A stretch of DNA of 40,000 bases from Roseomonas genomospecies 6 (GTDB lineage Bacteria > Pseudomonadota > Alphaproteobacteria > Azospirillales > Azospirillaceae): assembly GCF_008365375.1 (NCBI RefSeq), contig NZ_QOKW01000029.1, positions 44,366-84,365 of the forward strand, in the 5' to 3' direction. The notes beneath the pieces were generated by a model. That model saw only the letters and a list, made by a program, of their open reading frames with translations. It was not told where the DNA came from and made no database searches. Within the stretch, counting starts at the first letter, position 1; every line of letters starts with the position of its first letter. This document shows positions 1,275-40,000 of the stretch, piece by piece. A program made the position numbers and the translations under genes.

Positions 1275-1407
1275 CGCTCCATCCCGGGCGGCGCGGACGC
1301 CGTCGCTGGCGGCGCCCTGGACGGTCGCGGGACGCACCCGGTCGCAGGCCCATATGGTGCGGTCTTTCGAGAAGTATCGAAATAAGCCTTGACGGGCGAA
1401 CCGCTCC

Positions 1408-1437
1408 TTGTTATTCCGATATTCATCGAAATAACAA
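1408..1437. promoter_or_regulatory. Inverted repeat TTGTTATT-N14-AATAACAA in an AT-rich patch upstream of the flavoprotein gene
   Basis: The 8-bp arms lie at 1408-1415 and 1430-1437. ATCGAAATAA also occurs as a direct repeat at 1376-1385 and 1425-1434, and a TTGACG hexamer lies at 1389-1394. Confidence 0.3.
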
Positions 1438-1509
1438 CGGCGGTCGCGCCGGACGGCCCCGGCGGTGCAGCCAGCACCTTGAGTCGGCGTTCGGAACCCC
1501 TCTGCGCCC

Positions 1510-1533
1510 TATAATTACGGTATTCGCCGTAAT
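1510..1533. promoter_or_regulatory. Consensus TATAAT hexamer overlapped by the inverted repeat ATTACGG-N6-CCGTAAT; candidate promoter/operator
   Basis: TATAAT lies at 1510-1515. The IR arms lie at 1514-1520 and 1527-1533, about 50 bp upstream of the CDS at 1581. I could not find a convincing -35. Confidence 0.3.
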
Positions 1534-1580
1534 ACGGTATCAGGGAAAGCGTCTCGCCTCGGCAACCCAAGGGGAGAAGG

Positions 1581-3029
1581 ATGATGACGAGCAGCACGCT
1601 TCCCGTTGTTGTGATCGGAGCCGGACCGGTGGGGTTGGCCGCTGCGGCGCACCTGCTGGCCCGCGGGGTTCCCCCGCTGGTGCTCGAGGCGGCGAGCGAG
1701 GTCGCGGCGAACATGCGCGACTGGGGCCATGTCCGCCTCTTCTCGCCGTGGCGCTACAACATCGACACGCAGGCCCGGTCGCTTCTGACGGGCTCCGGCT
1801 GGACGGCTCCGGACCTCGACACCATCCCGACCGGCCGGGAGGTTGTCGATCGGTATCTCCGGCCGCTGGCGGCGCTGCCCGAGATGGCCTCCCGGCTCCG
1901 GTTCGGCCACCGCGTCACGGCCATCAGCCGCCAACACATGGACAAGGTGAAGACCGGCGGCCGCGACGCGTCGCCTTTCCTGCTTCGCGTCGAGACGCCG
2001 GATGGGGAAACCGAGATCCTGGCCGCCGCCGTCCTCGACGCCTCCGGCACGTGGTCGACGCCGAACCCCATGGGCGCCAACGGCCTTCCGGCCATCGGGG
2101 AGACGGCTCACGCCGCTCGAATCCTCTACGGCATCCCGGACGCGACCGGGGGCCAGCGCAGCCGGTACGCGGGCAAGCGGACGGTCGTGGTCGGCTCCGG
2201 TCACTCGGCCGCCAACAGCCTGTTGGACCTGGCGCGCCTGGCCGGGCAGGAGCCGGGGACCGAGGTGGTGTGGGCCGTGCGCGGCACCGACCTGCGCCGG
2301 GCCTTCGGCGGCGGCGAGGCCGATGCCCTGGCGGCGCGCGGCGCCCTCGGTGCGGCGCTGCGGACCCTGCACGCCAGCGGCAGACTGGACGTGGTGAGCG
2401 GCTTCCGGGTGGCGACGGTCGCGACGGAAAGCGGCAAGCTGGTGCTCGTCGGTGCCGACGGTCGCCGCATCGAGAACCTCGACGAGATCGTCGTCGCGAC
2501 CGGCCAACGACCCGATCTGGCGCCCCTGCGGGAGCTCCGGCTGAAGCTGGACCCCTGGCTGGAATGCAGCGAGGCGCTCGGGCCGCTCATCGACCCCAAC
2601 CTGCACAGTTGCGGCACCGTCCGGCCCCACGGCGTGCGTGAACTCTCCCATCCGGAGGCGGGGTTCTACACCGTCGGAATCAAGAGCTATGGCCGCGCCC
2701 CGACGTTCCTGATGGCGACCGGGTACGAACAGGTGCGCTCGATCGCCGCCTTCCTGGCCGGGGACATCCAGGCTGCCCACGACGTGCAACTGGACCTGCC
2801 GGAGACGGGCGTGTGCAGCAGCGATCTGGGGCCAGAGCCACTGGCGGCGGCAGCGGGGAAGTGCTGCGGCGGCCCCGCCCCCGCGTCGGCCGACGCCTGC
2901 TGCATGGAGGATGCCGCCAGGAAGTCCGCGGGCGCGGTGGGCTGCGGCTGCGGGTCGCCTGCGGCCCGGGCCGGGGGCCAGATCGGCAAGCCCGCGATGC
3001 CGGGCTGCTGCGGGTCGAGCCTCGCATGA
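1581..3029 (+). CDS. FAD/NAD(P)-binding pyridine-nucleotide-disulfide-type oxidoreductase (ArsO-like) with a Cys-rich C-terminal tail
   Basis: 482 aa. It has an N-terminal GxGxxG motif (VVVIGAGPVGLAAAAHL) and a second dinucleotide motif (VVVGSGHSAANSL). RBS GGGGAGAAGG lies upstream. The last ~75 aa carry 9 Cys in VC, CC, CC, CGC and CC clusters. Confidence 0.7.
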   Translation: MMTSSTLPVVVIGAGPVGLAAAAHLLARGVPPLVLEAASEVAANMRDWGHVRLFSPWRYNIDTQARSLLTGSGWTAPDLDTIPTGREVVDRYLRPLAALPEMASRLRFGHRVTAISRQHMDKVKTGGRDASPFLLRVETPDGETEILAAAVLDASGTWSTPNPMGANGLPAIGETAHAARILYGIPDATGGQRSRYAGKRTVVVGSGHSAANSLLDLARLAGQEPGTEVVWAVRGTDLRRAFGGGEADALAARGALGAALRTLHASGRLDVVSGFRVATVATESGKLVLVGADGRRIENLDEIVVATGQRPDLAPLRELRLKLDPWLECSEALGPLIDPNLHSCGTVRPHGVRELSHPEAGFYTVGIKSYGRAPTFLMATGYEQVRSIAAFLAGDIQAAHDVQLDLPETGVCSSDLGPEPLAAAAGKCCGGPAPASADACCMEDAARKSAGAVGCGCGSPAARAGGQIGKPAMPGCCGSSLA

Positions 3030-3170
3030 CCGCGACGGCAAAGGCCGGGGCGGCGATCGCCCCGGCCCCCGGCCCGCTGCGGACCCGCCTCATCGCCGGT
3101 CTCGGGTTGTCGCAGATCGTTTCCTGGGGCACGCTGGTCTACAGCTTCCCGCTGCTGGCGGAGCCGACCA
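3026..3170 (+). pseudogene. Probable 5' remnant of an MFS-type transporter gene
   Basis: ATGA overlaps the upstream stop (ATG 3026, TGA 3027-3029). The first ~47 codons (MTATAKAGAAIAPAPGPLRTRLIAGLGLSQIVSWGTLVYSFPLLAEP) look like an MFS N-terminus plus TM1. After that the frame becomes R/P/T-rich, with no further TM segments before its stop at 3538. Confidence 0.35.
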
Positions 3171-3639
3171 TGCGGGCGGCGCGCGCGCCATGGACGGACG
3201 CCGGAACCGCGCCGGAACCGACCACAGCAGTCCACGCAAGAAGCGCCACTGACGCCGAGCCCTTTAACGGTTCACGGTATCCCAAACGGACCGTGACGCG
3301 GCGCGGCGGCGGCCATTCCCGGTCAAACGCCGTTACCCGACGCCATTTGTCCGTTCCTCAGACCCGCCGCCCGGGGGCCTCCCTGCGCGGCATCCGTCGT
3401 CCGTGCCCCTGCCCCTGCCCCGTCCGCGCGATTGAGCCGCTGCCGCGTCGGTGGTACACAAGCCGCAAGGTCACTGGAGGCCTTTCCCCGCCTGCGTTTG
3501 GCGGTTGTGATGGGCTGTCCCGCCCCATCCGCCACTGAGCTTCGGGGCCTCGGGCGCGAACAGACCTCGTAAATCCATACGAGCGTAACGCTTCCTTCAA
3601 AACACTGTGCTTCTTTGAAGCATCGGGCATGGAGGCGGC

Positions 3640-4536
3640 ATGCGGATTTTGGTGGTGGACGATTCGCGCGTGGCGCGCACGGTGCTGTGCCGGCAACTTG
3701 AGGGCTTCGGCCATCAGACGGCTTTCGCCACGAGCGGTGCGGAGGCGTTGGACCGCTGCCGTGCCGAGCCCTTCGATATCGCGTTGGTGGACTTCCGCGT
3801 CGGCGATATGGAAGGCGTGGAGGCGTGCTGGCACCTGCGCGCGGCGCAGAGGGAGAGGCACCTTTACCTCATGCTGATGATTCCCGGCAGCATCACCAAC
3901 CAGTTCTTCGAGGTGGTGGAGAACGGGGCCGACGAGTTCCTTCGCAAGCCGTTGGACTTGACGTGGTTGCGTGCCCGGTTGCTGGCCGCTTCCCGCGTGG
4001 TGGATATGCAGCGCCAGTTGGAACGCCTTGCAACCACCGACTCCCTGACCGGTGCGCTGAACCGCGGTCGCTTCATGGTTCGGGCGGGAGAGGAGGTGGC
4101 CCGGGCGCAACGTCACGGCCAGCCGCTGTCGGCAATCATGCTGGACATCGACCACTTCAAGAAGGTCAACGACACCTACGGCCACGCCACCGGCGACGAA
4201 GCGATCCGTGCCGTCGTCCGCGTCTGCCGCTCGATGGTGCGCGGCGCGGACGTGCTGGGCCGCCTGGGCGGCGAGGAGTTCGCCATCCTGCTGCCCGACA
4301 CGCCGCCTCAGGGCGCGGCGCAACTGGCCGAGCGACTGCGCCGGCTGCTGGCGGAAGCCGAAGTGCGCATGCCCGGCGGCACGGGCGCGGCTTTGACGAT
4401 CACCGTCAGCATCGGCGTCAGTGCGCTGCGGCCAGGAGAAGGAGCGGTCAGTGCATTGCTGGCGCGCGCGGACGAGGCGTTGTACCGCGCGAAGAATGGC
4501 GGGCGGAATCGGGTGGTGTGCGACGCGGCGGTGTAG
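3640..4536 (+). CDS. Response regulator with REC receiver and GGDEF diguanylate cyclase output
   Basis: 298 aa. REC: MRILVVDDS...ALVDFRVGDM...LRKPLD. GGDEF: LTGALNRGRF, DIDHFKKVNDTYGHATGDEAI, active-site RLGGEEFAILL, ALYRAKNGGRNR. RBS GGAGG lies upstream. Confidence 0.9.
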   Translation: MRILVVDDSRVARTVLCRQLEGFGHQTAFATSGAEALDRCRAEPFDIALVDFRVGDMEGVEACWHLRAAQRERHLYLMLMIPGSITNQFFEVVENGADEFLRKPLDLTWLRARLLAASRVVDMQRQLERLATTDSLTGALNRGRFMVRAGEEVARAQRHGQPLSAIMLDIDHFKKVNDTYGHATGDEAIRAVVRVCRSMVRGADVLGRLGGEEFAILLPDTPPQGAAQLAERLRRLLAEAEVRMPGGTGAALTITVSIGVSALRPGEGAVSALLARADEALYRAKNGGRNRVVCDAAV

Positions 4537-7077: not shown

Positions 7078-8961
7078 ATGAAGGTATTGTCTCGATGGCT
7101 TCTGGCGTCGGTCGCAATCGTTGCTGCCGGTTCCGTTTCTGCGAACGACAGCGTTATGAAGAATGAGGCGAACCCGAACAACTGGGCGTCTCAGCTCGGC
7201 AACTATGCCGGACAGCGTTACAGCCCGCTCGACCAAATCAACACCGGCAACGTCAAGGACCTTCAAGTCGCCTGGTCTTTCTCGACCGGAGTTCTGCGCG
7301 GCCACGAAGGCGGTCCGATCGTCGTCGGCGATGTGATGTACATCCACACGCCTTTCCCCAACAAGGTCTTCGCTCTGGATTTGAACAATCCCGGGCGCGT
7401 CATCTGGAAGTATGAATCGGTCCAGGACCCGACCGTCATCCCGGTCATGTGCTGCGACACGGTCAACCGCGGCGTTGCGGTCGCGGACGGCAAGGTCTTC
7501 CTGGCGCAGGCCGACAACACGCTGGTCGCTCTCGACGCGAAGACCGGCAAGGAACTTTGGAAGGCCAAGAACGGCGATCACACCAAGGGCGAAACCCTGA
7601 CGGCGGCCCCGCTGGTGGTCAAGGACAAGGTCTACGTCGGCATCAGCGGCGGCGAGTTCGGCGTGCGCGGGCATCTGACGGCCTATGACACGAACAGCGG
7701 CAAGATGGTGTGGCGGGCCTTCTCGACCGGCCCCGACACCGACGTGAAGATCGACCCGCAGAAGACGACGATGATGGGCAAGCCCATCGGGCAGAAGGAT
7801 CTCGGCGTTTCCACATGGCCGGGCGAGGAATGGAAGCGGGGCGGCGGGACGACCTGGGGCTGGTACACCTACGATCCGGCGCTCAACCTGATCTATTACG
7901 GCACCGGCAACCCGGGCACCTGGAACCCGGTCCAGCGGGCCGTCGACAACGACCGGAACAAGAGCGACAACAAATGGTCGATGACCATCTTCGCGCGCGA
8001 CCCCGAAACCGGTGAGGCAAAGTGGGTCTACCAGAAGACGCCCTTCGACGAATGGGACTTCGATGGCGTCAACGAGAACATCCTGGCCGACATTCCCATC
8101 AACGGCCAGACGCGCAAAGTCCTGGTCAACTTCGACCGCAACGGCTTCGCCTACACCCTGGACCGTGAAACCGGCGAGTTGCTCGTCGCGCAGAAGTTCG
8201 ACCCGACGGTCAACTGGGCGACCGACGTCGACATGAAAACCGGGCGTCCGAACGTCGTCGACAAGTACAGCACCTTCGCCAACGGCGAAGACAAGAACAC
8301 CGCCGCCGTCTGTCCCGCCGCCCTCGGCACGAAGGACCAGCAGCCGGCGTCCTTCTCGCCGGACACCGGGTTGTTCTATGTCCCGACGAACCACATCTGC
8401 ATGGATTACGAGCCCTTCTCGGTCTCCTACACCGCCGGTCAGGCCTATGTCGGCTCGACGGTCTCCATGTACCCGACGCCGAACTCGCACGGCGGCATGG
8501 GCAACTTCATCGCCTGGGACGCGGCGGCCGGCAAGATCGTCTGGTCGCGGCCGGAGCGCTTCGCGGTGTGGAGCGGCGCCCTGTCCACCAAGGGCGGCGT
8601 GGCTTACTACGGGACACTCGAAGGCTATCTCGTCGCCGTCGACATGAAGGACGGCAAGGAGCTGTGGCGGTTCAAGACCCCGTCCGGCATCATCGGCAAC
8701 GTCAACACCTACACGCACAACGGGAAGCAGTATGTGGCCGTCCTGTCCGGCGTCGGCGGCTGGGCGGGCATCGGTCTCGCCGCCGGCCTGACCCAGGAAT
8801 CCGGGGCGAACCAGTGGCACCAGGCCGTCCATCCCGGACGGACGGGAGGCACGGGGGTGTCGACCGCCGGTCTGGGCGCGGTCGGCGCCCACCAGTCGCT
8901 GGGCGAGTATACCCAGCTCGGCGGGGTCCTGACGGTGTTCCACATCCCGGACCAGAGGTGA
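7078..8961 (+). CDS. xoxF: XoxF-type lanthanide-dependent PQQ methanol/alcohol dehydrogenase
   Basis: ATG at 7078 with GGGAGGG RBS and signal peptide [22 protein letters not shown]. It has the vicinal-disulfide motif [10 protein letters not shown] and [11 protein letters not shown], with Asp where MxaF has Ala (DYAG). No mxaI-like small-subunit gene follows. Confidence 0.92.
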
Positions 8962-9545: not shown

Positions 9546-10865
9546 ATGGCGGCGATGCGCAGAGGCGTTCTTTCCGTCGCGGCTGCGGCCGCGGTGCTTG
9601 CCGGCACCGCGGCCCCGCCGGCCCTGGCCGTCGAGGTGACGGACCGGGAATCCGTGCGGGTCTGCGCCGACGGAAACCTGCTGCCCTACTCCAACGAGAA
9701 GCTGGAAGGCTTCGAGAACGAGATCGCCCGGCTGATCGGGGAGGACCTGAAGAAGCCGGTGACCTATTACTGGTGGCCCCAGACCATCGGCTTCGTCCGC
9801 AACACGCTGCGCGCGCGGCAGTGCGATCTCGTGATGGGCACGGCGTCCGGCGAAGAGCAGATGCAGAACACCAACCCCTACTACCGGACCGTCTACGCTC
9901 TGGTCTACCGTACGAAATCGGGCATCCAGGCGGAGACCGTGGGCGACCCGTCCCTGAAGGACGCCCGCATCGGCGTCGTCGAGAAGACTCCCGCGGTCAA
10001 CCTCCTGCGGCGTTACGGCATCATCCGGACCGAGCCCTACCAGCTCAACACGGACACGCGCACGAACAACCCGGCCCGCGACGCCATCGCGGACGTGGCC
10101 GCCGGGAAGACCGACGCCGCGGTGATCTGGGGACCGATCGCCGGCTATTTCGCCGCCCAGCAGGCGGAACCGCTGACCGTCGTGCCGCTGGTCAAGGAGC
10201 CGCCGACGGCCCGGCTGCAATTCAACATCTCCATGGGCATCCGCGCCGACGAACCGGAGTGGAAGCACTGGCTCAACGACTTCATCAAGCGCCGCCAGGA
10301 CGACATCGATCGCATCCTCCTGCGTTATCACGTCCCGATCATCGGACCGGACGGCGCGCTCAAGACGGCCGCCGCCCTGGAGCCGCCGGACTACCGGATG
10401 GACCATTACCGCGCCCCGACCCCCGCCGGCCTGTCCGGCGCGTCCACCGTGACCCTGGCGGAATTGCGCGGGTTGATCGAACGCTTCCCGGACACGCGGC
10501 TGATCGACGTGATGCCGGCGGCGCCGCGCCCGGCGGACCGACCCGCTTCGGCGGTGTGGGTTCCTCCGCCCCGCCGCAGCCTGCCGGGGGCGGTCTGGCT
10601 GCCCAACGTCGGCTACGGCAGCCTGTCCGGCGACCAGGAACGCTATTTCCGCGCCGGGCTGGAGGCGCTGAGCAAAGGGAACCGGGAGCCCCGGCTGGTC
10701 TTCTTCTGCGAGCCGGACTGCTGGATGTCCTGGAACGCCGCGAAGCGCGCCGTGGAGTGGGGCTATGGCAACGTCTACTGGTATTCCGACGGCGCCATGC
10801 GGTGGCAGGAGGCGGGCTACGCGCTGGAGACGGTTCAGCCCTTCGCCGGCGGCGCCTCGAACTGA
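9546..10865 (+). CDS. xoxJ: XoxJ/MoxJ-like periplasmic binding protein fused to a C-terminal PQQ-associated CXXCW (rhodanese-like) domain
   Basis: ATG at 9546 with GGGAGG RBS and a signal peptide ending PALA. The N-terminal ~285 aa are MoxJ-like (VRVCADGNLLPYSN, DLVMG, WGPIAGYF). From ~10377 the sequence reads YRAPTPAGLSGASTVT...LPGAVWLPNVGYG...VFFCEPDCWMSWNAAKRA...GYGNVYWYSDG, which is the CXXCW family signature. Confidence 0.8.
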   Translation: MAAMRRGVLSVAAAAAVLAGTAAPPALAVEVTDRESVRVCADGNLLPYSNEKLEGFENEIARLIGEDLKKPVTYYWWPQTIGFVRNTLRARQCDLVMGTASGEEQMQNTNPYYRTVYALVYRTKSGIQAETVGDPSLKDARIGVVEKTPAVNLLRRYGIIRTEPYQLNTDTRTNNPARDAIADVAAGKTDAAVIWGPIAGYFAAQQAEPLTVVPLVKEPPTARLQFNISMGIRADEPEWKHWLNDFIKRRQDDIDRILLRYHVPIIGPDGALKTAAALEPPDYRMDHYRAPTPAGLSGASTVTLAELRGLIERFPDTRLIDVMPAAPRPADRPASAVWVPPPRRSLPGAVWLPNVGYGSLSGDQERYFRAGLEALSKGNREPRLVFFCEPDCWMSWNAAKRAVEWGYGNVYWYSDGAMRWQEAGYALETVQPFAGGASN

Positions 10866-10894
10866 GCGTGTGCCGTCCTGAATCGAGGTGGCCT

Positions 10895-11515
10895 TCAGTC
10901 CAGGCGGGCGGCGATGACGCGCGCGATGCGGCCCGCCTTCCGTTCGATCTGGACCGGCTGGTCGCACAGCGCCGTCTGATGGCGCCGCCGTTCGTCGAGG
11001 ATGCGCCGACGCCAGGCGATGTCCTCCCGCAGGACCGCCGCCTCGGGGGCATCGGCGGGAAGCCCGTTGAGGCGGGTCAACGCCTTGTCGATGCTGTCGA
11101 GCAGGTCGCGCTGCTGGTGGGCATAGCGCCGGATGGCCGCGATGGCTTGGCCGCGCTCCTGGTTGAGCGCGTCGAAGGCACCGGCGAACAGGGCGGTAAG
11201 GGCCGCGTTGCGGTCCGCCCCGGTCTTCGTCCCACTGGCTTCCAGTTGATCGGCGAACCGGTCGATCACCGCCTGTTCCTGCTCCGGATCGAGCCGGCGG
11301 TTGAGGACCTGCTTCAGAACCGGTTCGACGCCGGGAATGTCGCGCCAGTCCCCCTCCCTCCCCTCGATGGGCTCGCCGGGCCAGATCTGGCCGGACGACA
11401 GGGCCGGAACCAGGACCTGGACGCAGGGCCAATCCGGATCGCCGCCCCCGGCGGCACCCGCCGGGACGGCCCCCAGGATGAGGAATGCGGCGACGAGAGC
11501 GGAGTGGTGACGCAT
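10895..11515 (-). CDS. Exported hypothetical protein (206 aa), helix-rich, 2 Cys
   Basis: ATG at 11515. Signal peptide MRHHSALVAAFLILGAVPAGAAG, then DPDWPCVQ... I recognise no family. It is divergent from the DUF3280-led operon. Confidence 0.6.
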   Translation of the reverse strand: MRHHSALVAAFLILGAVPAGAAGGGDPDWPCVQVLVPALSSGQIWPGEPIEGREGDWRDIPGVEPVLKQVLNRRLDPEQEQAVIDRFADQLEASGTKTGADRNAALTALFAGAFDALNQERGQAIAAIRRYAHQQRDLLDSIDKALTRLNGLPADAPEAAVLREDIAWRRRILDERRRHQTALCDQPVQIERKAGRIARVIAARLD

Positions 11516-11573
11516 GGTACGATTCTGCAGGACGTCGGGCCGGTCTGCCCATCCGGTCATTCGGATAAGGCCG

Positions 11574-12080
11574 ATGGAATTCGTCCTGGCGGCGGCCCTG
11601 CCGCTGGCTCTGCTGCTGGCGTCCCCCGCCCCGGCTGCGGCGGAGACGCCGGTCAAGGTGATGGTCTTCGACGTCGAGCTGGTCGACACCAGCCAGGAGG
11701 GTCCCGATCCGGACCATCCCGGAAGGCTGGAGCGGGTGACGGCGCTCCTGCGCGACGGGTTGAGGGATGGCGGCTTCGAGGTGACCGCCGCACGCGACAG
11801 CGCCATCGCCGCGGAGCTTCCGGCGACGCTGCGCCAGTGCAACGGATGCGAACTCGACCTGGGGCGCCGGGCGGGCGCGGATGTCGTGGTGACGGGATTC
11901 ATCCATAAGATCAGCACGCTGATCCTGAACATGCAGATTATAATGCGCCGAAGCGGAGACGGCGGCATCGTCGCCGTCGGAAACGCGGACATCCGCGGCG
12001 ACAACGAACGGTCATGGCGGCGCGGTGTCGAATGGCTGCTGCGTCACCGTCTTCTCGCCGCACCGCCGTCCGACCGGTGA
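11574..12080 (+). CDS. Exported DUF3280/DUF2380-like protein
   Basis: ATG at 11574 with signal peptide MEFVLAAALPLALLLASPAPAAA. It has VFDVELVDTS, the CNGCE motif, GFIHKISTLILNM and DIRGDNERSW, which match my memory of that family. Confidence 0.65.
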   Translation: MEFVLAAALPLALLLASPAPAAAETPVKVMVFDVELVDTSQEGPDPDHPGRLERVTALLRDGLRDGGFEVTAARDSAIAAELPATLRQCNGCELDLGRRAGADVVVTGFIHKISTLILNMQIIMRRSGDGGIVAVGNADIRGDNERSWRRGVEWLLRHRLLAAPPSDR

Positions 12081-12142
12081 CGCATTCCGAAGCATCCGAG
12101 GCGGGGGAACCGACCTTCGCCCGACACGGGGAGGAGGATCGC

Positions 12143-16090: not shown

Positions 16091-16528
16091 CTATTGCCCC
16101 GACCCCTGCTTCGGCGGCTCGGACGTGTTGTTGCCCCCCTGCGAAACGGAGCCGCCGCCGATGGTGCCCTGCCGCTGCCCAGCCAGGGAGTTGTCCGGCA
16201 GCGCACCCGACGTACCGCCGGAAGCGCCGCCAGTGGCGCCGGGAGCCGTGGAACCGGACGTGGAACCGGACGTGCCGCTCTGCGCGCCGCCTTGGGTGGT
16301 CGTGCCGCCGATGGTGCCCTGCCGCTGTCCGGGCAAGGAGTTGTCCGGCAGGGCGCCGGTCGATGGGCTGGTGCTTTGGCTGCCGGTTCCCTGGGTCGCG
16401 GCGCCACCCGTCGTGGATTGGGCCGTCGTGGATTGGGCCGTCGTGGACTGGGCGGACGCCGGAACCGTCGCGGCGGCCACGGCCAGGGCCAGCACGGACG
16501 CGCCGGCCAGGATGTGCAGTTGATTCAT
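16091..16528 (-). CDS. Secreted low-complexity Ser/Thr/Gly/Gln-rich repeat protein (145 aa)
   Basis: ATG at 16528 with GAGGA RBS. Signal peptide MNQLHILAGASVLALAVAAATVPASA, then QSTTA x3 (15-nt tandem repeat at 16409-16453) and two copies of GALPDNSLxGQRQGTIGG. Third-position GC is high in this frame. Confidence 0.6.
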   Translation of the reverse strand: MNQLHILAGASVLALAVAAATVPASAQSTTAQSTTAQSTTGGAATQGTGSQSTSPSTGALPDNSLPGQRQGTIGGTTTQGGAQSGTSGSTSGSTAPGATGGASGGTSGALPDNSLAGQRQGTIGGGSVSQGGNNTSEPPKQGSGQ

Positions 16529-16569
16529 GGGACAAATCCTCGCTTGGTGTTGGGAGATCGTGACGGCAC

Positions 16570-16752
16570 TCACCGCTCGTCCTTCGCGCTCCGGTTCCGG
16601 CGCGATGCCTCCCCCATGTGCCCGATGTCGTCCTTCGCCTGCTTGTCCCGCCCGGCGTCCTGCGGTTCGTCCTTCTTGAAGTCCTGCTTGCTGCCGAGAA
16701 CGCTCTTCTCGCCGCGGGGCTGGTCCTGATCCTTGTCGGATTTTGCGGTCAT
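16570..16752 (-). CDS. Small (60 aa) highly charged D/K/Q-rich hypothetical protein
   Basis: ATG at 16752 with strong GGAGGA RBS. Sequence: MTAKSDKDQDQPRGEKSVLGSKQDFKKDEPQDAGRDKQAKDDIGHMGEASRRNRSAKDER. There is no signal peptide, and third-position GC is high. Confidence 0.5.
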   Translation of the reverse strand: MTAKSDKDQDQPRGEKSVLGSKQDFKKDEPQDAGRDKQAKDDIGHMGEASRRNRSAKDER

Positions 16753-16839
16753 GACGTTTTCCTCCACCCGACCCGCCCGGCGGGATGACCGGACGGTCGT
16801 CTCATCCGTCAACCGGAGGTCGCCCGCCGCGGTTCCGAC

Positions 16840-17655
16840 TTACCCCTGTTCCGCCGGGCCGCCGCGGCGGGCCCAGAAGCCACGCCCCGGATCGTAGGCG
16901 AGGATCGCCGCCCCCAGGAACAGGGCGAGGCAAGCGGCCACGGCCAGGAAGGCCGTGCCGTTGAATTGCAGGTACAGCGCGAAGCGGATCAGCTCGACGG
17001 CCTGCGTGAAGGGGTTGACCTCGGCGATCCAGGCGAGCGTCGGGCTGCCCTCGCGGATGCGCCACAGCGGGTAGAGCGCCGAGGAGGCGAAGAACATCGG
17101 GAAGATGACGAAGTTCATCACGCCCGCGAAATTCTCCAATTGCCGAATGAAGGAGGACAGCAGAAGGCCGAGCGCCCCCAGCATCAGCCCGCTCAGCACC
17201 AAGGCCGGCAACACGGCGAGGTAGCCGAGTTCGGGCGGCTGGACGTTCCAGAGGCGGGCGATGGCGAAGAAGACGTAGACCTGGGCGATCGACACCAGCA
17301 CGCCGGCCAGCAGCTTGCAGACCAGCAGGTACCAGCGCGGCAGCGGGCTGACCAGCAGGGTCTTCATGCTGCCCGTCTCCCGGTCGTAGACCATGGACAG
17401 CGAACTCTGCATGCCGTTGAAGAGCTGGATCATGCCGACCAGCCCCGGCGTCACGTAATCCTCGTACAGGATGTAGGTCTCGTAGGGCGGAATGATCGAC
17501 AGGCCGAGCACCGCGCGGAAGCCCACCGCGAAGATGCCCAGCCAGACCAGCGGTCGCACCAGGGCGGCGAAGAACCGCTCGCGCTGGTGCACGAAGCGCA
17601 GCCCCTCGCGGACGATGATCGCGCGCAGGCACCGCCAGTAGAGCGTCGCGTTCAT
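16840..17655 (-). CDS. ABC-2 type permease of the PQQ-dehydrogenase-associated (PedC/LutF-type) transporter
   Basis: ATGA overlaps the ATPase stop. It has about six hydrophobic segments and an ABC-2 pattern (NPFT..VE.IR). Confidence 0.85.
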   Translation of the reverse strand: MNATLYWRCLRAIIVREGLRFVHQRERFFAALVRPLVWLGIFAVGFRAVLGLSIIPPYETYILYEDYVTPGLVGMIQLFNGMQSSLSMVYDRETGSMKTLLVSPLPRWYLLVCKLLAGVLVSIAQVYVFFAIARLWNVQPPELGYLAVLPALVLSGLMLGALGLLLSSFIRQLENFAGVMNFVIFPMFFASSALYPLWRIREGSPTLAWIAEVNPFTQAVELIRFALYLQFNGTAFLAVAACLALFLGAAILAYDPGRGFWARRGGPAEQG

Positions 17656-34184: not shown

Positions 34185-35231
34185 ATGGAGAGCGGCGGGC
34201 TGATCGGGCTGGACATCGGCGGGGCGCACCTGAAGGCGGCTCTGTTCGACGAGGCGGGGACTCTCCGCGATCTCGGTCAATGGCCCTGTCCGCTCTGGCA
34301 GGGCCTCGACCGGCTGGAAGCCGCCGTCGGGGCGGTGCTCGCCCAATGGGGTCTGCCGCGACGGGCCGCCGCGACCATGACCGGCGAACTGGCCGACCTG
34401 TTCGACGACCGCGCGGACGGCGTGCGCCGCATCGCCGTGGCGATGCGCTCCGCCCTGCCCGCGGCAAGCCTCACCCTCTTCGCCGGCCCCCGTGGACTGG
34501 TGCCCGCCGAAGCCGTGCCGGACTGCGCGGGCGCGGTGGCCTCCGCCAACTGGTACGCCACGGCGCTGGTGGCCGCCGGGGCCGGAGACGGACTCCTTCT
34601 GGATGTCGGAAGCACCACCACCGACATCGTCCCGCTGGTCGGCGGCGGCCCGCGCCACGCCGGCTATTCCGACGCGGAGCGGCTGGAGAGCGGGGAGTTG
34701 GTCTACACCGGCATCGTGCGCACCCCGGTCATGGCGGTCGCCCGCGCCGTTCCCCACAACGGGCGCTGGCGCACGCTGATGGCGGAGCTGTTCGCGACCA
34801 TGGCCGACGTCCACCGTCTGACCCGAACGCTGCCGGAGGGCGCCGACCAGCACCCCACGGCGGACGGGCGAGACCACGGCATCGAGGCCAGCGCACGGCG
34901 GCTGCTGCGGATGGTGGGCGACGACCTGGAGCCGGGCGGTCTTCCGGCGGCCTGCCGCCTCGCCCGCCATCTCGCGGAACGCCAGCTCCGGCAGATCGAG
35001 GACGCGCTCGACCAAGTGCTGTCCCGGGACTTGGCGGCGGACTCCCCGCCCCTCGTGGGAGCCGGGGTGGGCCGCCTCCTGGTGAAGCGTCTGGCCGAGC
35101 GCCGGGGGACGGCCTATCGGGACTTCGAAGCCCATCTGCCGGTTGCGCCGGATTTGCGGGAGCGCGCCGGGTGGTACGCGCCCGCCGTCAGCGTCGGCTG
35201 GCTGGCCCTGCATCATGCTCCCTTCTCCTGA
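34185..35231 (+). CDS. Hydantoinase/oxoprolinase-related 'H4MPT-linked C1 transfer pathway' protein
   Basis: Motifs: IGLDIGGAHLKAA, MTGELADLF, LLDVGSTTTDIVP, ELVYTGIVRTPV. It begins 3 nt after the upstream stop. Confidence 0.75.
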   Translation: MESGGLIGLDIGGAHLKAALFDEAGTLRDLGQWPCPLWQGLDRLEAAVGAVLAQWGLPRRAAATMTGELADLFDDRADGVRRIAVAMRSALPAASLTLFAGPRGLVPAEAVPDCAGAVASANWYATALVAAGAGDGLLLDVGSTTTDIVPLVGGGPRHAGYSDAERLESGELVYTGIVRTPVMAVARAVPHNGRWRTLMAELFATMADVHRLTRTLPEGADQHPTADGRDHGIEASARRLLRMVGDDLEPGGLPAACRLARHLAERQLRQIEDALDQVLSRDLAADSPPLVGAGVGRLLVKRLAERRGTAYRDFEAHLPVAPDLRERAGWYAPAVSVGWLALHHAPFS

Positions 35232-35327
35232 GATTGACGGTGCGCCGCACAAACACCTTTGCCCGATTGCTGCACCCTTCGGCGCGGCCCCATACTCGCT
35301 CAAATGGACAAAATGCAGGAACGGACG

Positions 35328-36302
35328 ATGGCTGGCACGGCCGCGTTCCTCCGAACGCCCGCCCCCACGGCGTTGGCCCGCATTTGGGTGTTGGGCATCT
35401 GGCTATCGGGCGTCTGGCTGTTGTGGGCAGCACCCGCGCAGGCCGATCCATTGCCCATGTTCGAAGTGGCGCCCGGCATCTTCGTGCATGCGGGCCGCCA
35501 TGAGGAAACCGATCCCGGCAACGTGGGCGACATCGCCAACTGCGGGTTCATCGTGGGTGACGACGCGGTCGCCGTGATCGACACCGGCGGCTCCCCAACG
35601 ATCGGGCGACGGCTGCGCGAGGCGATCCGGGTCCGCACCGACCGGCCCATCCGCTATGTCATCAACACCCACATGCACCCGGACCATGCGCTGGGGAACG
35701 CGGCCTTCCTGCCCGACCAGCCGGATTTCGTGGCGCACCACAATTTCCAGGCGGCCCTGATGGCGCGCAGCGGCCATTACCGGAAGTCCTTCGAAGCGGC
35801 GGTCGGGTCCGAGGCGGCCGGAGAGGTGCAATTCCTCCCGCCGACCGTCGTTGTATCCGACCGTATGGACCTCGACCTGGGGGCGCGCGTTCTGGAGCTG
35901 GTCGCGCACCCGGTGGCGCACACGGACAACGACCTGACGGTGCTCGACCGGTATACCGCGACGCTGTGGACCGGGGACCTGCTGTTCATGGATCGGGCGC
36001 CGGCCATCGACGGTTCCGTCCTCGGCTGGCTCCGCCTGTTGGATACGCTGGCTGCGGAACCGGCGGCGCGCGTGGTCCCCGGACATGGACCGCCCTCGGC
36101 CCCTTGGCCGGACGCGGCGGCCGATCTGCGCCGCTACCTGAACCAGATCGTCGCCGGTGTCCGCTCGGTCCAGGCTGCTCACGGAACCATGCAGCAGGCG
36201 GTCGACACGGTCGCCTCCGACGAAGCTCCGCACTGGCGGCTGTTCGATGCCTACAACCCGCGCAACGTGACGGCGGCCTTCGCGGAATTGGAATGGGAAT
36301 GA
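35328..36302 (+). CDS. Exported metallo-beta-lactamase-fold hydrolase (matches the 'quinoprotein relay system zinc metallohydrolase' context)
   Basis: HxHxDH motif as NTHMHPDH, later HTDND and PGHG. The N-terminus has a hydrophobic signal or anchor (IWVLGIWLSGVWLLWAAPAQA). In-frame alternative starts exist at 35304 and 35313. Confidence 0.78.
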   Translation: MAGTAAFLRTPAPTALARIWVLGIWLSGVWLLWAAPAQADPLPMFEVAPGIFVHAGRHEETDPGNVGDIANCGFIVGDDAVAVIDTGGSPTIGRRLREAIRVRTDRPIRYVINTHMHPDHALGNAAFLPDQPDFVAHHNFQAALMARSGHYRKSFEAAVGSEAAGEVQFLPPTVVVSDRMDLDLGARVLELVAHPVAHTDNDLTVLDRYTATLWTGDLLFMDRAPAIDGSVLGWLRLLDTLAAEPAARVVPGHGPPSAPWPDAAADLRRYLNQIVAGVRSVQAAHGTMQQAVDTVASDEAPHWRLFDAYNPRNVTAAFAELEWE

Positions 36303-36316
36303 AACGGGAGGACAAC

Positions 36317-37147
36317 ATGACGGCATCGCACCGGATCATCTCCGGGCCGGCAACGGCCGCGCTGGCGGGAGCGGCTTGGCTGTGCCTGGGCGCCGGAACC
36401 GCTCTGGCGGCCTCGCCTCAGGAAGAGCGCTGGGACATGCTGCGCGACATGTATTTCTCCGGCCGTACGGTCGAGGACGCCGGACCGCTCCTCAGCCTGG
36501 AGGCGCCCAAGCGCGCCAACGACGCGGCGGTGGTTCCCGTCCGCATCGTGACCGCTCCCGGTGCCGGCATCCAGGTGACCGCGGTTCATCTGATCGTCGA
36601 TGGCAACCCGGTGCCGCTGGCCGCAACCTTCCGCTTCGCCCAGGGCGACAGCCCACAGACCATCGACACCCGCTTGCGGGTCGACGCCTACACGAACATC
36701 ACCGCCGTCGCCGAGACCGGCGACGGACGGTTGCTCCGGACCGTCCAGTTCGTCAAGGCGTCCGGGGGATGCTCGGCTCCGGCCCTGAAGAACGCGCAAC
36801 TCACCGTCGCCCGCATGGGCAAGATGAAGCTGAACCTGCCCGACAGCATCGCCGCCGGAAAGCCGATGACCGCGCAATTGCTGATCAGCCACCCCAACTA
36901 CACCGGCATGCAGTATGACCAGCTCAATCACTACATCATCCCGGCCCACTATGTGAAAAGGATCGCCATCCGCTACAACGGAGCGCCGGTGCTTGACGTG
37001 CAGTCCGACATTTCGTTGAGCGAAGACCCCAGCATCCATTTTTCCCTGGTGCCTGACGAACAAGGCACGCTGGAGGTCATCGCCGAGGATTCGAACGGAC
37101 GCATCTTCAATGAGAGCTGGCCGATCCGGGCCAACTCCGGTTCGTAG
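36317..37147 (+). CDS. SoxY-SoxZ fusion carrier-like protein (quinoprotein dehydrogenase-associated)
   Basis: ATG at 36317 with GGGAGGA RBS and a signal peptide ending ALAAS. The SoxY-like half ends at VKASGGCSAP (Cys codon 36770-36772). The SoxZ-like half contains LLISHPNYTGMQ and IPAHYV. Confidence 0.8.
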   Translation: MTASHRIISGPATAALAGAAWLCLGAGTALAASPQEERWDMLRDMYFSGRTVEDAGPLLSLEAPKRANDAAVVPVRIVTAPGAGIQVTAVHLIVDGNPVPLAATFRFAQGDSPQTIDTRLRVDAYTNITAVAETGDGRLLRTVQFVKASGGCSAPALKNAQLTVARMGKMKLNLPDSIAAGKPMTAQLLISHPNYTGMQYDQLNHYIIPAHYVKRIAIRYNGAPVLDVQSDISLSEDPSIHFSLVPDEQGTLEVIAEDSNGRIFNESWPIRANSGS

Positions 37148-37164
37148 GGGGAGAACCGGACCGG

Positions 37165-37506
37165 TCAGAAGCACTTCAGGTCGGCGGCGACCTGAACCTG
37201 CCGGAACTCGTCCAGCAGATCCTTGATCCACCCGACGTCGCGCATCAGCGAGGCGCGCTCGCCGGGGGCGTCCTGCATGCCGCGCGCGGTCTCGACCGCG
37301 ACGTAGCTGTCGTAGGGGAAGTGCGCGGCAATCTCGTCGATGCTGCACGAACACTTGCGCACGACGTCCGGACCCTGGCCATTGGACACCATGCAACCCA
37401 GGACATAATCGACGCGGGCTTGGGTGGGATACCCCTCCTCGGCCTGCGCCGTGCCGAAGCCGACCAGAGTCGCGACCAGCACAACCGGGACAACAGTTCT
37501 CTTCAT
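37165..37506 (-). CDS. Exported 4-Cys hypothetical protein (113 aa)
   Basis: ATG at 37506. Signal peptide MKRTVVPVVLVATLVGFGTAQA. The mature part has C..(12)..C.C and a C-terminal ...LKCF. It is convergent with the SoxYZ-like gene, 17 nt apart. Confidence 0.55.
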   Translation of the reverse strand: MKRTVVPVVLVATLVGFGTAQAEEGYPTQARVDYVLGCMVSNGQGPDVVRKCSCSIDEIAAHFPYDSYVAVETARGMQDAPGERASLMRDVGWIKDLLDEFRQVQVAADLKCF

Positions 37507-37713
37507 CGGATCAAGCCCAAACCGTTCTGCGCAGATGCGCGCCATATGGTGCGGCGATCCGGCAATCCGGCTCAAGCACGCATTCGGAGACCACCGCCCG
37601 ACGATTTCAAAGGAGGACGAGGCATCCCGCAACAAACCATGATAATAAATGCACTCTTACATCAAATACTCCATACTCATTTTCCATCTGGCTATCCATA
37701 AGTATCATGGCTG

Positions 37714-37741
37714 TTGCATGACTGGGCCAGTAGGCTATCTT
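37714..37741 (+). promoter_or_regulatory. Candidate sigma70-type promoter for pqqA
   Basis: TTGCAT (37714-37719), a 16-nt spacer, then TATCTT (37736-37741), in an AT-rich patch about 60 nt upstream of pqqA. Pattern match only. Confidence 0.35.
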
Positions 37742-37800
37742 AAGAGGGCAGGAACCACCGACCACCCTCCTCATCCATTGGAGATCTGAGGGAGCGCATC

Positions 37801-37881
37801 ATGAAGACTTGGCGCAAACCGAAAATCCACGAAATCGCCGTCGGCACCGAGATCAACGCCTACGCCTGCGCCCAACTCTGA
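37801..37881 (+). CDS. pqqA: PQQ precursor peptide PqqA (26 aa)
   Basis: Not in the ORF track because it is too short. Sequence: MKTWRKPKIHEIAVGTEINAYACAQL*, with the conserved W-x-x-P, E-x-x-x-Y (EINAY) and RBS GAGGGAG 6 nt upstream. Confidence 0.85.
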   Translation: MKTWRKPKIHEIAVGTEINAYACAQL

Positions 37882-37922
37882 CGGCAACGCACCATCGCAC
37901 GAGCATGTCCGCGACCGACTTT

Positions 37923-37960
37923 CCAGCGGCAGCGGGTCGCCTCGGCCCCGCTGCCGCTGG
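37923..37960 (+). terminator. Perfect 14-bp stem hairpin between pqqA and pqqE; attenuator or processing-protection structure
   Basis: CCAGCGGCAGCGGG-tcgcctcggc-CCCGCTGCCGCTGG. There is no T-tract after it, so it is probably a partial terminator or stabiliser, as described for other pqq operons. Confidence 0.5.
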
Positions 37961-38020
37961 ACGTTCCCCGCCGTGCCGATGAATGATCGACGATTTGGGT
38001 GAAGGAGGATTCCCGGCGCC

Positions 38021-39106
38021 ATGGCCGTGCCCGATCCGCCCTACGCCGTTCTGGCCGAGCTGACCCACCGCTGTCCGCTCGCTTGTCCCTACTGTTCGAA
38101 CCCGCTGTCGCTCGACGCGAAGACCGGTGAACTCGACACGGACAGTTGGAAGCGCGTGCTGGACGAAGCCGCCGAAATCGGGGTTCTGCAAATCCACTTC
38201 TCCGGCGGCGAGCCTTGCGCGCGCACCGACCTGGAAGCGCTGGTGGAGCACGCCACCCAGGCCGGGCTGTACAGCAACCTCATCACCTCCGCCGTCACGC
38301 TCGACCGCCGCCGGTTGGACCGCCTGAAGGCGGCAGGCCTCCAGCATGTGCAGATCAGTTTCCAGGACACGCGCCCGGAGGGGAACGACCGCGTCGCCGG
38401 TTTCCCGGGCGCCCACGAACGCAAGCGCCTCGCCGCCCGCAGCGTGGTCGAGGCGGGTCTTGCCCTGACGGTGAACGCCGTCGTGCATCGGCACAACATC
38501 GATCACGCCGACGAATTCTTCGACCTCGCCTTGGATTTGGGTGCCGGCCGCATCGAGGTCGCCAACGTGCAGTATTACGGATGGGGGCTGCTGAACCGCG
38601 CTGCCCTCATGCCGACGCGCGACCAGCTTCTCCGCATGGACGCCGTCGTCCGGGAGCGGATGGCCGGGCTTTCCGGGCGTCTGGTCGTGGACTACGTCGT
38701 ACCCGACTATTACGCCCGCCGGCCGAAGGCCTGCATGGGCGGATGGGGGCGGCGCTTCATGAACATCACGCCATCCGGCAAGGTCCTGCCCTGCCACGCC
38801 GCCGAGACCATCCCCGGCCTTGCGTTCGAGACGGTGCACGACCGACCGCTCGGCGCCATCTGGCGGGACTCTCCGGCTTTCGAACGGTTCCGCGGGACGG
38901 GTTGGATGCCAGCCCCTTGCCGGGATTGCGACCGCCGGGAGATCGACTGGGGCGGATGCCGCTGCCAGGCGCTCGCGATTGCCGGAGACGCCGCCGCCAC
39001 CGATCCCGTGTGCGAATTGTCGGCCGATCACGCGCGCGTCGTCGCGCTTGCCGAGGACGAGTCGGGGCGCGGGGACGAGCCTTTCGTGTATCGGCGGCAC
39101 GCGTAG
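38021..39106 (+). CDS. pqqE: PQQ biosynthesis radical SAM/SPASM enzyme PqqE
   Basis: Motifs: VLAELTHRCPLACPYCSNP (CxxxCxxC), SGGEP, NLITS, QISFQD, ANVQYYGWGLLNR, PDYYARRPKACMGGWG, LPCHAA, and SPASM PCRDCDRREIDWGGCRCQA...DPVC. Confidence 0.92.
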   Translation: MAVPDPPYAVLAELTHRCPLACPYCSNPLSLDAKTGELDTDSWKRVLDEAAEIGVLQIHFSGGEPCARTDLEALVEHATQAGLYSNLITSAVTLDRRRLDRLKAAGLQHVQISFQDTRPEGNDRVAGFPGAHERKRLAARSVVEAGLALTVNAVVHRHNIDHADEFFDLALDLGAGRIEVANVQYYGWGLLNRAALMPTRDQLLRMDAVVRERMAGLSGRLVVDYVVPDYYARRPKACMGGWGRRFMNITPSGKVLPCHAAETIPGLAFETVHDRPLGAIWRDSPAFERFRGTGWMPAPCRDCDRREIDWGGCRCQALAIAGDAAATDPVCELSADHARVVALAEDESGRGDEPFVYRRHA

Positions 39107-39145: not shown

Positions 39146-40000
39146 TCAGGCCGGGCGCGACGGATCGAAGCGGACGAACCACTGTCCCATGCCGTCCGGC
39201 GCCGAGGCGTCGTAGTGAAGCGACGACAGACGCAGACGGCCGGCACTGCCCAGTTCGGGACCCGTCGCCATGGTGTGGAAGCTCTCGCCACCCATGAGAC
39301 GGTGCACGATCGTCAGGTAAAGCCGCGACAGCACCCCGTCTCGCAGTGTGGTCGACAACATGCGGGGGCCGGCCAGCAAGTACACGCTGCGGAAACCAAG
39401 CCTGCCGAGTTCCCGAACCAGTGGTGCCCCCTCCACAAACGCACCGTCTCCGGCGATGATGACCGGATAGCCGCGCGCGCGCAGCGCTTCGACCCGGTCG
39501 GGCGGCGCCTGCCGGCCGGTCGCGATCAGGACGCGCTGGCCCGCCCGGACGACGGACTCCGGCATCGGAAAGTCGAGGCTTGCGCTTGCGATCACGACGG
39601 AGGGCTGAGCGGACAGGCCTTTCTCCTTCCTCCAGCGCGGAAGGTCGCGCCCCCCGTCGCGTGTTCCGATCTGCAGGACATCATCCAGCCTCCCCGCCGC
39701 GAGGTCCCGCAGGTACCCCCCATGCGTGACGAAGCAATCGGCTTGTGCCTGCAATTCCAGGAACAGGCGAAAGTCGTTCTCGTTGGTGATCTCGACCGGA
39801 AGATGGCTTGCCCCGGTGCGCTGATCCTGCAACGCGATCCGCCCATCCAGGCTGCCGACGAAGCTCGCATAGACGAACGGCGCTGCGGCACTTCCGAGAG
39901 TGTGCACCGCATCGGCCAGATACAGTCCGGCCAAGGCCACGTCCTTGATCGGAGCGGGGAAAAGCCTCAACACGCGCGCAGCCATCCCCAACGATAGCAT
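39146..40000 (-). CDS. RibD C-terminal domain / DHFR-like reductase; possibly dihydromethanopterin reductase (DmrA)-like
   Basis: Motifs: FVGSLDGRIAL, NENDFRLFLELQAQADCFVTHGGY, VIASASLDFP, LLAGPRMLSTTL, LYLTIVHRLMGGE. An ATG sits exactly at the window edge (39998-40000), with an alternative ATG at 39985. The true start may lie outside the window. Confidence 0.68.
   Translation of the reverse strand: MLSLGMAARVLRLFPAPIKDVALAGLYLADAVHTLGSAAAPFVYASFVGSLDGRIALQDQRTGASHLPVEITNENDFRLFLELQAQADCFVTHGGYLRDLAAGRLDDVLQIGTRDGGRDLPRWRKEKGLSAQPSVVIASASLDFPMPESVVRAGQRVLIATGRQAPPDRVEALRARGYPVIIAGDGAFVEGAPLVRELGRLGFRSVYLLAGPRMLSTTLRDGVLSRLYLTIVHRLMGGESFHTMATGPELGSAGRLRLSSLHYDASAPDGMGQWFVRFDPSRPA

Follow-up and report, generated by a model that had tools for sequence, protein, structure and literature searches.

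We analysed 40,000 nucleotides of the Roseomonas genomospecies 6 genome (contig NZ_QOKW01000029.1; the whole stretch is called the window below), focusing on three adjacent genes that encode an exported metallo-beta-lactamase (MBL)-fold hydrolase, a single polypeptide joining a SoxY-like half to a SoxZ-like half, and an exported protein with four cysteines (the 4-Cys protein). We are highly confident of the identities of the genes and of their linkage to xoxF, and we read the three as periplasmic accessory proteins of the methanol dehydrogenase XoxF, which depends on lanthanides and pyrroloquinoline quinone (PQQ). No methanol dehydrogenases are more widespread than the lanthanide enzymes of the XoxF type, yet knowledge of how they mature and of their accessory factors is only partial. 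By analogy with SoxYZ and SoxB, we tentatively propose that a sulfur-based cycle of loading and unloading on a carrier cysteine may serve XoxF, which we hold as a possibility and not as an expectation. The hydrolase-carrier pair is already catalogued, is annotated in Azospirillum, and has been discussed in print as a companion of PQQ dehydrogenases; what is new here is the 4-Cys family, which is linked to both the carrier and xoxF in a conserved way and of which we did not find a description elsewhere.

The three open reading frames (ORFs; Table 1) are genes and not chance frames, because the G+C content at third codon positions is 0.85 in each of the chosen frames and each has many homologues. 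An earlier note on this DNA, made from the sequence alone, had described the hydrolase, a 14-nt gap, the fusion with its cysteine codon, and a convergence at 17 nt, all of which are correct to the base. The gap between the hydrolase and the fusion (36303-36316) holds a GGGAGGA ribosome-binding sequence. On the other side, 17 nt (37148-37164) separate the stop codon of the fusion from that of the convergent 4-Cys ORF; no terminator-like site was found between these two genes, and an Rfam scan for a regulatory RNA between them gave no match of note.

The fusion is a member of the SoxYZ-like carrier family TIGR04557, which it matches with 239.2 bits (cut-off 140) over profile positions 1-225 of 226, and an NCBI protein that already bears this name matches it with 100% identity. 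It has 3730 homologues, many of which the Joint Genome Institute (JGI) annotates as 'sulfur-oxidizing protein SoxY'. The Pfam SoxY domain covers residues 46-152 and the SoxZ domain residues 177-267. Both halves score below the cut-offs of the true families: 62.9 vs 125 bits for TIGR04488 (SoxY_true_GGCGG) and 56.6 vs 76 for TIGR04490 (SoxZ_true). There is also no free C-terminal GGCGG arm; the cysteine is followed by SAPALKNAQ and then by the SoxZ domain on the same chain. We rejected canonical Sox membership of the fusion on cut-offs, architecture, and context.

By alignment, the cysteine in question, Cys152, is homologous to the swinging-arm cysteine of SoxY: in a phmmer search against PDB it aligns with the GGC cysteine of Paracoccus pantotrophus SoxY (2OX5). 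Its surroundings, K-A-[AS]-G-G-C-S-A-P, recur in each of the 120 best homologues, the most distant of which share 45% identity, and are invariant in an alignment of 34 diverse sequences (A3), as are SHPNxxGxQxDQ and DISxSxxP in the SoxZ half. Genomic and metagenomic loci yielded 121 homologues, and every one that covers the linker (117/117) keeps the cysteine, so that the conservation check proposed in the earlier note does not refute its idea. One paralogue has the variant GQGACAAP. Contig L161 encodes two SoxYZ-like paralogues, the second of which (16181-16858, minus strand) carries the variant loop KTSGQGACAAPPG, with the cysteine retained and the GGC context changed.

The AlphaFold2 model of the fusion (predicted local distance difference test, pLDDT, 83.9) has two confident beta-sandwich domains (pLDDT >90) that superpose on the SoxY (template modelling score ~0.8) and SoxZ (~0.9) subunits of 2OX5/2OXH. 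Residues 151-160, with a mean pLDDT of 56, are the sole low-confidence internal stretch. Given that this stretch lies between well-predicted domains, the model suggests that Cys152 sits on a flexible inter-domain loop, tethered at both ends. The earlier equation of this residue with the SoxY cysteine thus holds, but its description as buried does not; the model places it in an exposed loop of low confidence.

The hydrolase belongs to the companion family TIGR04559, 'quinoprotein relay system zinc metallohydrolase 2' (388.6 bits, curated cut-off 280), and stays well short of what the sister family TIGR04558 requires (184.9 bits, cut-off 300). The two family names given in the earlier note are the best NCBIfam matches of these proteins, both above curated cut-offs. 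The Pfam Lactamase_B match has an E-value of 6.6e-24, and the translation begins with a signal-like segment ending in AQA. The sequence THMHPDH (codons 35670-35687, residues 114-120) provides an HxHxDH metal motif, and H198, the D230 region, and H253 are candidates for the later metal ligands. Judged by its sequence, the protein is an MBL-fold hydrolase of the SoxH-like kind, in which the HxHxDH motif is intact and zinc binding is predicted. Among solved structures it comes closest to chlorothalonil dehalogenase (6UXU, E 1e-16); the match to GloB is weak (E 4e-4), and beta-lactamase and dehalogenase relatives score better.

Relatives of the fusion occur at no fewer than 591 loci when one genome is taken per GTDB species. 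We analysed the best 80 with 10-kb flanks, a sample skewed to relatives of the Azospirillum protein. Seventy of these loci contain the MBL gene, and in 61 it immediately precedes the carrier gene in the same orientation. A XoxF-type dehydrogenase gene is found within 10 kb of the SoxYZ-like gene in 38/80 loci, and some gene of the PQQ system in 54/80. For a genome of a few Mb with a handful of such dehydrogenases, we estimate the chance expectation at about 1-2%. SoxYZ-like genes are found near xoxF and pqq genes far above chance, bearing out the co-occurrence that the earlier note had made a test of its idea. The neighbouring dehydrogenases that could be typed are of one kind: the lanthanide-type Asp is present in all 47 with a readable motif, and a vicinal Cys-Cys pair in 54 of 57. 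In several lineages, including Nitrospirillum and Stellaceae, a PqqE-like gene lies directly upstream of the MBL gene.

Other surroundings of the carrier gene were also seen. Within 8 kb of two solitary fusions (L167 and L168) there is no MBL, 4-Cys, or PQQ dehydrogenase gene; an ABC transporter and MTTB/GST genes neighbour one of them, and motAB the other. In three Methylococcales loci (L045, L047, and L073, at about 10780-12090), an MBL-SoxYZ-like pair without a 4-Cys gene has, downstream and in the same orientation, an rpiA-like gene and one for a Bcp-type peroxiredoxin (YFYPKDDTPGCT), an arrangement shared by Methylococcales only. In a viral collection, one contig holds a SoxYZ-like relative (L170, IMGVR_UViG_3300027741_000121; 45% identity) and none holds a 4-Cys homologue.

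The 4-Cys protein has no Pfam or NCBIfam match, even at E<=10. Across 33 members of its family no Pfam match appeared at E<=10, PDB sequences gave no match to the family profile (A2) at E<=10, and a Foldseek search of the model against PDB returned nothing below E=1. The earlier note had correctly described an exported, convergently encoded protein of 113 residues; its verdict that the protein could not be placed gives way to a large unnamed family that tracks XoxF, and not the carrier alone. There are 92 close homologues and 2220 clusters with a distant profile; at 50% identity the family comprises at least 757 clusters, 516 of them below 1e-10. Members are named 'hypothetical protein' in their sources, apart from one UniRef record, 'Rap1a immunity protein domain-containing'. 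We rejected this type VI immunity label, which has no Pfam, PDB-sequence, or fold support, the named homologue included.

The four cysteines of the protein, which has a signal-like N-terminus, are Cys38, Cys52, Cys54, and Cys112; in an alignment of 150 representatives, all sequences that extend over the region retain them together with P27, T28, Y34, G43, and D57, in the motifs YPTxARVDYVxGCM, KCSCSID, and a C-terminal CF. The AlphaFold2 model (pLDDT 84.9, >90 over the mature part) has five helices. Helix 1 contains C38, helix 2 contains both C52 and C54, and helix 5 has C112 at its end; these positions suggest that two disulfides probably staple the protein. As for co-loss of cysteines as a guide to their pairing, all four are kept in every aligned representative. 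P0337 is a signal-peptide-bearing trypsin-like protease of 342 residues (Trypsin_2, 56-183) with a complete C-terminal 4-Cys domain (241-339); no other domain fusion that appears genuine was seen in the family.

We find 4-Cys homologues, by the family hidden Markov model, in 57 of the 80 loci seeded with the carrier, directly downstream and convergent in about 40. This convergent arrangement recurs in Azospirillaceae, Geminicoccaceae, Stellaceae, Rhizobiales, Methylophaga, Arenicellales, and Methyloversatilis, and thus in Alpha-, Beta-, and Gammaproteobacteria; Skermanella and Aerophototrophica have it just as in the window. Among the 23 loci without a 4-Cys gene, no recurring substitute small Cys protein was found. 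Seeding with the 4-Cys family instead, we see a convergent SoxYZ-like gene in 30 of the 55 metagenome contigs with enough downstream sequence, and at least one PQQ-system gene in 43. The gene also lies directly upstream of xoxF, with the carrier not adjacent, in Methylocapsa acidiphila, Massilia (where a gfa gene precedes and overlaps it), and several contigs; in Methylomarinovum it comes before fdh-xoxF, and in two betaproteobacterial metagenome-assembled genomes it lies between xoxJ and the carrier gene, with no MBL gene. Other neighbours are a YVTN propeller, a PedC permease, and cytochrome c. In the Halomonas-like L002 and L003, for example, the 4-Cys gene is followed after 12 nt by a same-strand cytochrome c gene (132 residues); ped-like ABC transporter genes lie alongside, and a SoxYZ-like gene is not in view. 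A minority of 4-Cys genes stand in unrelated contexts, such as among glycosyltransferases (L148). The 4-Cys family tracks XoxF clusters, and convergence on the carrier is its commonest arrangement and not its sole one.

This linkage leaves little room for the idea that the 4-Cys ORF is an unrelated neighbour, for instance a Rap1a-like immunity protein without ties to the carrier or XoxF, an idea we find barely credible: it can call on one UniRef name, on the convergent orientation, so that the gene is not co-transcribed with the pair, and on the roughly one-fifth of 4-Cys-seeded loci that show no PQQ gene in view (L148 included), but it faces the lack of any Rap1a or other Pfam match in 33 members (E<=10) and of any PDB match, the same convergent adjacency across three proteobacterial classes, and the alternative sites upstream of xoxF or beside the propeller and the permease.

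The window itself contains a methylotrophy island, starting near 5 kb, as seen in NCBIfam and Pfam scans of its ORFs. Its XoxF has the vicinal Cys pair (MCCD) and a DFD motif (DEWDFDG) with the extra Asp two residues past the catalytic Asp; by motif the enzyme is of the lanthanide type, its metal dependence being predicted. The gene for the XoxJ-like protein, a member of the MoxJ_2 subfamily, continues into a rhodanese-like CXXCW domain. The earlier note had listed the latter (10377-10865) as a gene of its own, whereas it is the C-terminal domain of the XoxJ-like ORF. Its motif reads CEPDCW (10707-10724), with three residues between the cysteines, and not C-x-x-C-W. Azospirillum brasilense has one coding sequence of 438 residues at this position in RefSeq, and the two parts are also fused in Aerophototrophica (436 residues); in Skermanella the XoxJ-like and CXXCW genes are separate and overlap. 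The island further contains XoxG, DUF3280, a PedABC-like transporter with a YVTN propeller, fhcCDAB, genes of tetrahydromethanopterin (H4MPT) and methanofuran biosynthesis, fae, and mch. The MBL-carrier pair comes after these H4MPT genes, 27 kb from xoxF and next to pqqA.

Table 1 Features of the window (positions count from its first letter).
Feature	Positions	Strand	Length	Basis or remark
XoxF-type, lanthanide-type PQQ methanol/ethanol dehydrogenase (type by motif)	7078-8961	+		TIGR03075, 744 bits vs cut-off 480
XoxJ-like periplasmic binding protein with rhodanese-like 'CXXCW' domain, single ORF	9546-10865	+	439 aa	TIGR03871, 288 bits; TIGR03865, 194.8 bits
MBL ORF: SoxH-like MBL-fold hydrolase, exported	35328-36302	+	324 aa	
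SoxY-SoxZ fusion ORF	36317-37147	+	276 aa	
Cys152 codon TGC, in KASGGCSAP	36770-36772	+		Putative carrier thiol of the inter-domain GGCSAP loop
4-Cys ORF, exported, all-helical (model)	37165-37506	-	113 aa	Convergent on the fusion gene
Divergent AT-rich spacer between 4-Cys gene and pqqA	37507-37800	.	294 nt	Read from sequence
pqqA, MKTWRKPKIHEIAVGTEINAYACAQL	37801-37881	+	26 aa	ORF list; RefSeq names the syntenic gene pqqA in Azospirillum plasmids
PqqE-like radical SAM/SPASM protein, directly after pqqA	38021-39106	+		Pfam Radical_SAM 1.1e-22, SPASM 3.5e-08

The spacer upstream of the 4-Cys gene accounts for a dip in G+C to 0.64 at 36-38 kb. It contains the sole sigma-70-like match within 34900-38100 (at 37681-37708) and, going by its sequence, is a probable shared promoter region of the 4-Cys gene and pqqA. 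Plasmid p2 of A. brasilense has the same divergent layout, and in RefSeq Azospirillum megaplasmids the syntenic trio is annotated as relay metallohydrolase 2, SoxYZ-like carrier, and 'hypothetical protein', followed by pqqA; by this synteny the window belongs to an Azospirillum chromid. No pqqB, pqqC, or pqqD lies between or after pqqA and the PqqE-like gene in the window, where a RibD_C-like gene follows (39146-40000, minus strand); at the corresponding site A. brasilense MTCC4038 has an orphan pqqA only. The DUF3280 gene (11511-12080, plus strand; Pfam 6.7e-35) recurs in L001, L004, L168, L169, and L174 and is another uncharacterised accessory gene of the XoxF/SoxYZ-like system. At the other end of the window (501-4536), arsH, a flavin monooxygenase-like gene, and a gene for a PleD-like response regulator/diguanylate cyclase appear unrelated to the island.

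The sulfur-based cycle that we tentatively propose would work as follows. The carrier thiol would alternate between a free and a covalently loaded state, and the adduct would most likely be sulfur-based, a persulfide or thiosulfonate, because of the SoxYZ homology and the rhodanese-like domain that is always nearby. Loading would take place at the XoxF system, either via the rhodanese-like CXXCW domain fused to XoxJ or by XoxF itself, and the zinc hydrolase would empty the carrier, in the role that SoxB has for SoxYZ. The cycle may serve to keep the XoxF active site, with its strained vicinal Cys-Cys ring and lanthanide-activated PQQ, clear of sulfur adducts. The 4-Cys protein would be a helical partner of XoxF or the carrier, docking on one of them, and two disulfides probably staple it. 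The earlier note had put forward a persulfide or thiol relay to the vicinal disulfide of XoxF or to the CXXCW protein, which our results favour no more than rival chemistries.

Published work bears on several of these steps. MxaJ, a homologue of XoxJ, is a chaperone that holds MxaF open, and it is there that PQQ is inserted and the disulfide ring formed (PMC12276312). A 2026 review of the ped cluster describes PP_2666 (rhodanese-like), PP_2677 (SoxYZ-like), and PP_2678 (SoxH-like) as conserved with lanthanide/PQQ enzymes, names the Methylobacterium extorquens homologues of these genes, and offers as hypotheses vicinal disulfide formation or protection of PQQ from sulfur nucleophiles (PMC12997753). 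In a 2024 study, fusions of this kind were named SoxYZ-S2 and SoxYZ-S4, with soxH, PQQ-ADH, xoxF, and fdh as neighbours, and a shielding of methanol dehydrogenase from thiosulfate was suggested (PMC11237559). Work on Hyphomicrobium assigned the ensemble to alcohol catabolism and not to sulfur oxidation (PMC11582611). Thiosulfate inhibits the growth of Hyphomicrobium on methanol and not on formate, as the finding is cited in PMC12997753 and PMC11237559.

Several observations weigh against a sulfur-based cycle serving XoxF. Within 10 kb of the carrier gene, the MBL gene is absent from 10/80 loci and the 4-Cys gene from 23/80, and solitary fusions occur (L167, L168). We know of no handling of reduced sulfur in many of the host organisms. 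The closest solved relative of the hydrolase, 6UXU, is a hydrolytic dehalogenase and not a thiosulfohydrolase, and there is no soxAX, soxB, or soxCD among the window genes scanned with NCBIfam. Random-barcode transposon sequencing of the Pseudomonas putida homologues gave minimal phenotypes, in cultures without rare earths (PMC12997753). MxaFI assembles in Escherichia coli with MxaJ alone (PMC12276312); the module is therefore dispensable for basic maturation. We found no experimental support in the literature for any chemistry of the module, in keeping with the earlier note, which knew of no biochemical characterisation.

The main rival explanation, which we consider somewhat unlikely, is a redox relay. 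Here the CXXCW domain on XoxJ, the carrier cysteine, and the CxC-bearing 4-Cys protein would pass oxidising equivalents, and the Cys-Cys ring of XoxF would be made, or made anew, on an enzyme that XoxJ keeps open for loading with PQQ and lanthanide. The XoxJ-CXXCW fusion does put a Cys-bearing domain on the chaperone, and the ring arises in the MxaJ-bound, PQQ-loaded state (PMC12276312). The vicinal pair is present in the XoxF of the window as well as in 54 of 57 neighbouring dehydrogenases, the C-S-C of the 4-Cys protein is invariant, and 'enzyme maturation or redox control' is the reading favoured in the ped-cluster review (PMC12997753). In a pure thiol-disulfide relay, however, the zinc hydrolase has no obvious role, and a carrier with a single cysteine cannot resolve a mixed disulfide alone. 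Moreover, Ca-type enzymes with the same ring work in species without the module (PMC12997753), and methanol dehydrogenase has been assembled in E. coli without it (PMC12276312).

A bolder form of the sulfur-based cycle, which we regard as unlikely, would make the 4-Cys protein a dedicated XoxF partner, such as a transient small subunit or a factor delivering lanthanide or PQQ, and the carrier a protein-bound thiol substrate of XoxF. By this account XoxF, with XoxG, would replace SoxAX in oxidative sulfur loading and the SoxH-like hydrolase would replace SoxB, amounting to a PQQ- and lanthanide-dependent Sox-like periplasmic pathway of which ThdT may be a glimpse. ThdT, a XoxF homologue of Advenella kashmirensis, couples glutathione to tetrathionate upstream of SoxB and SoxCD, according to the summary of Pyne et al. 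2018 in bioRxiv 10.1101/683490. The likeness is that, in this published case, a PQQ protein of the XoxF type shares a thiol-bound sulfur intermediate with Sox-type proteins, both acting on it; the difference is that the thiol is glutathione and the hydrolase SoxB, and that no SoxYZ-like fusion, SoxH-like MBL protein, or 4-Cys protein was implicated. A xoxF knockout of Paracoccus thiocyanatus is reported to have had no sulfur phenotype (bioRxiv 10.1101/683490).

We think it very unlikely that the module captures aldehydes. In that scheme the carrier thiol would react in the periplasm with formaldehyde or another aldehyde given off by the dehydrogenase, to give a hemithioacetal and then, by oxidation, a thioester, which the MBL protein would hydrolyse like glyoxalase II, in a protein-bound analogue of the glutathione-dependent formaldehyde pathway. 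The HxHxDH motif is of the glyoxalase II type and the weak GloB match points the same way, although beta-lactamase and dehalogenase relatives outscore it; the genomic setting fits as well, with the Azospirillum pair following the H4MPT, fae, and mch genes of formaldehyde oxidation on the same strand and gfa preceding the 4-Cys gene in Massilia. Aldehyde capture, however, leaves unexplained both the constant rhodanese-like partner and the homology of every component to sulfur-transfer proteins, and it has no known precedent.

A lithotrophic origin of the pair, as a remnant or a variant of thiosulfate oxidation with incidental methylotrophy neighbours, is highly improbable despite the clear SoxY and SoxZ Pfam domains and the JGI labels, given scores below both true-family cut-offs, the missing free GGCGG C-terminus, the lack of soxAX, soxB, and soxCD in the window, PQQ-system neighbours in 54/80 loci, and a literature that likewise concludes against sulfur oxidation (PMC11237559, PMC11582611).

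Comparison with known systems places the window pair among the ordinary members of the catalogued one, with no essential difference: PP_2677/PP_2678 of P. putida, META1p1703-1705 of M. extorquens, and 'SoxYZ-S2/S4' of lucinid symbionts share the hydrolase-carrier order, the GGCSAP loop, and the setting in a PQQ-dehydrogenase island. Particular to the window are the H4MPT genes ahead of the pair, the 27 kb to xoxF, the adjacent pqqA, and the convergent 4-Cys gene, of which we found no mention in the literature. SoxYZ and SoxB of P. pantotrophus (2OX5, 4UWQ) have in common with the window proteins the SoxY and SoxZ folds, the GGC carrier cysteine, and a metallohydrolase partner gene. In contrast to SoxYZ, the window carrier is one polypeptide and not two, with its cysteine in an internal loop and not at a free GGCGG C-terminus, and the window hydrolase is of the MBL fold (SoxH-like) and not SoxB-type, with no SoxAX or SoxCD. 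Compared with the chaperones MxaJ and XoxJ, the XoxJ of the window has the extra C-terminal rhodanese-like CXXCW domain; the MBL, fusion, and 4-Cys genes are not homologous to MxaJ. We found nothing in the literature on the 4-Cys family or on xoxF expression in Azospirillum. Two further points that we did not find described are the exclusively lanthanide-type neighbours in this sample and the XoxJ-CXXCW fusion as a physical link between sulfur module and chaperone.

These observations define a set of four proteins, the hydrolase, the carrier, the 4-Cys protein, and XoxJ-CXXCW, that can be tested in the tractable hosts A. brasilense and P. putida; they sharpen the functional question and make it testable, and do not answer it. 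If the module does guard or repair the PQQ/Cys-Cys site from sulfur compounds, this would explain the reported interference of thiosulfate with growth on methanol, and it would be relevant to the engineering of methanol and alcohol oxidation.

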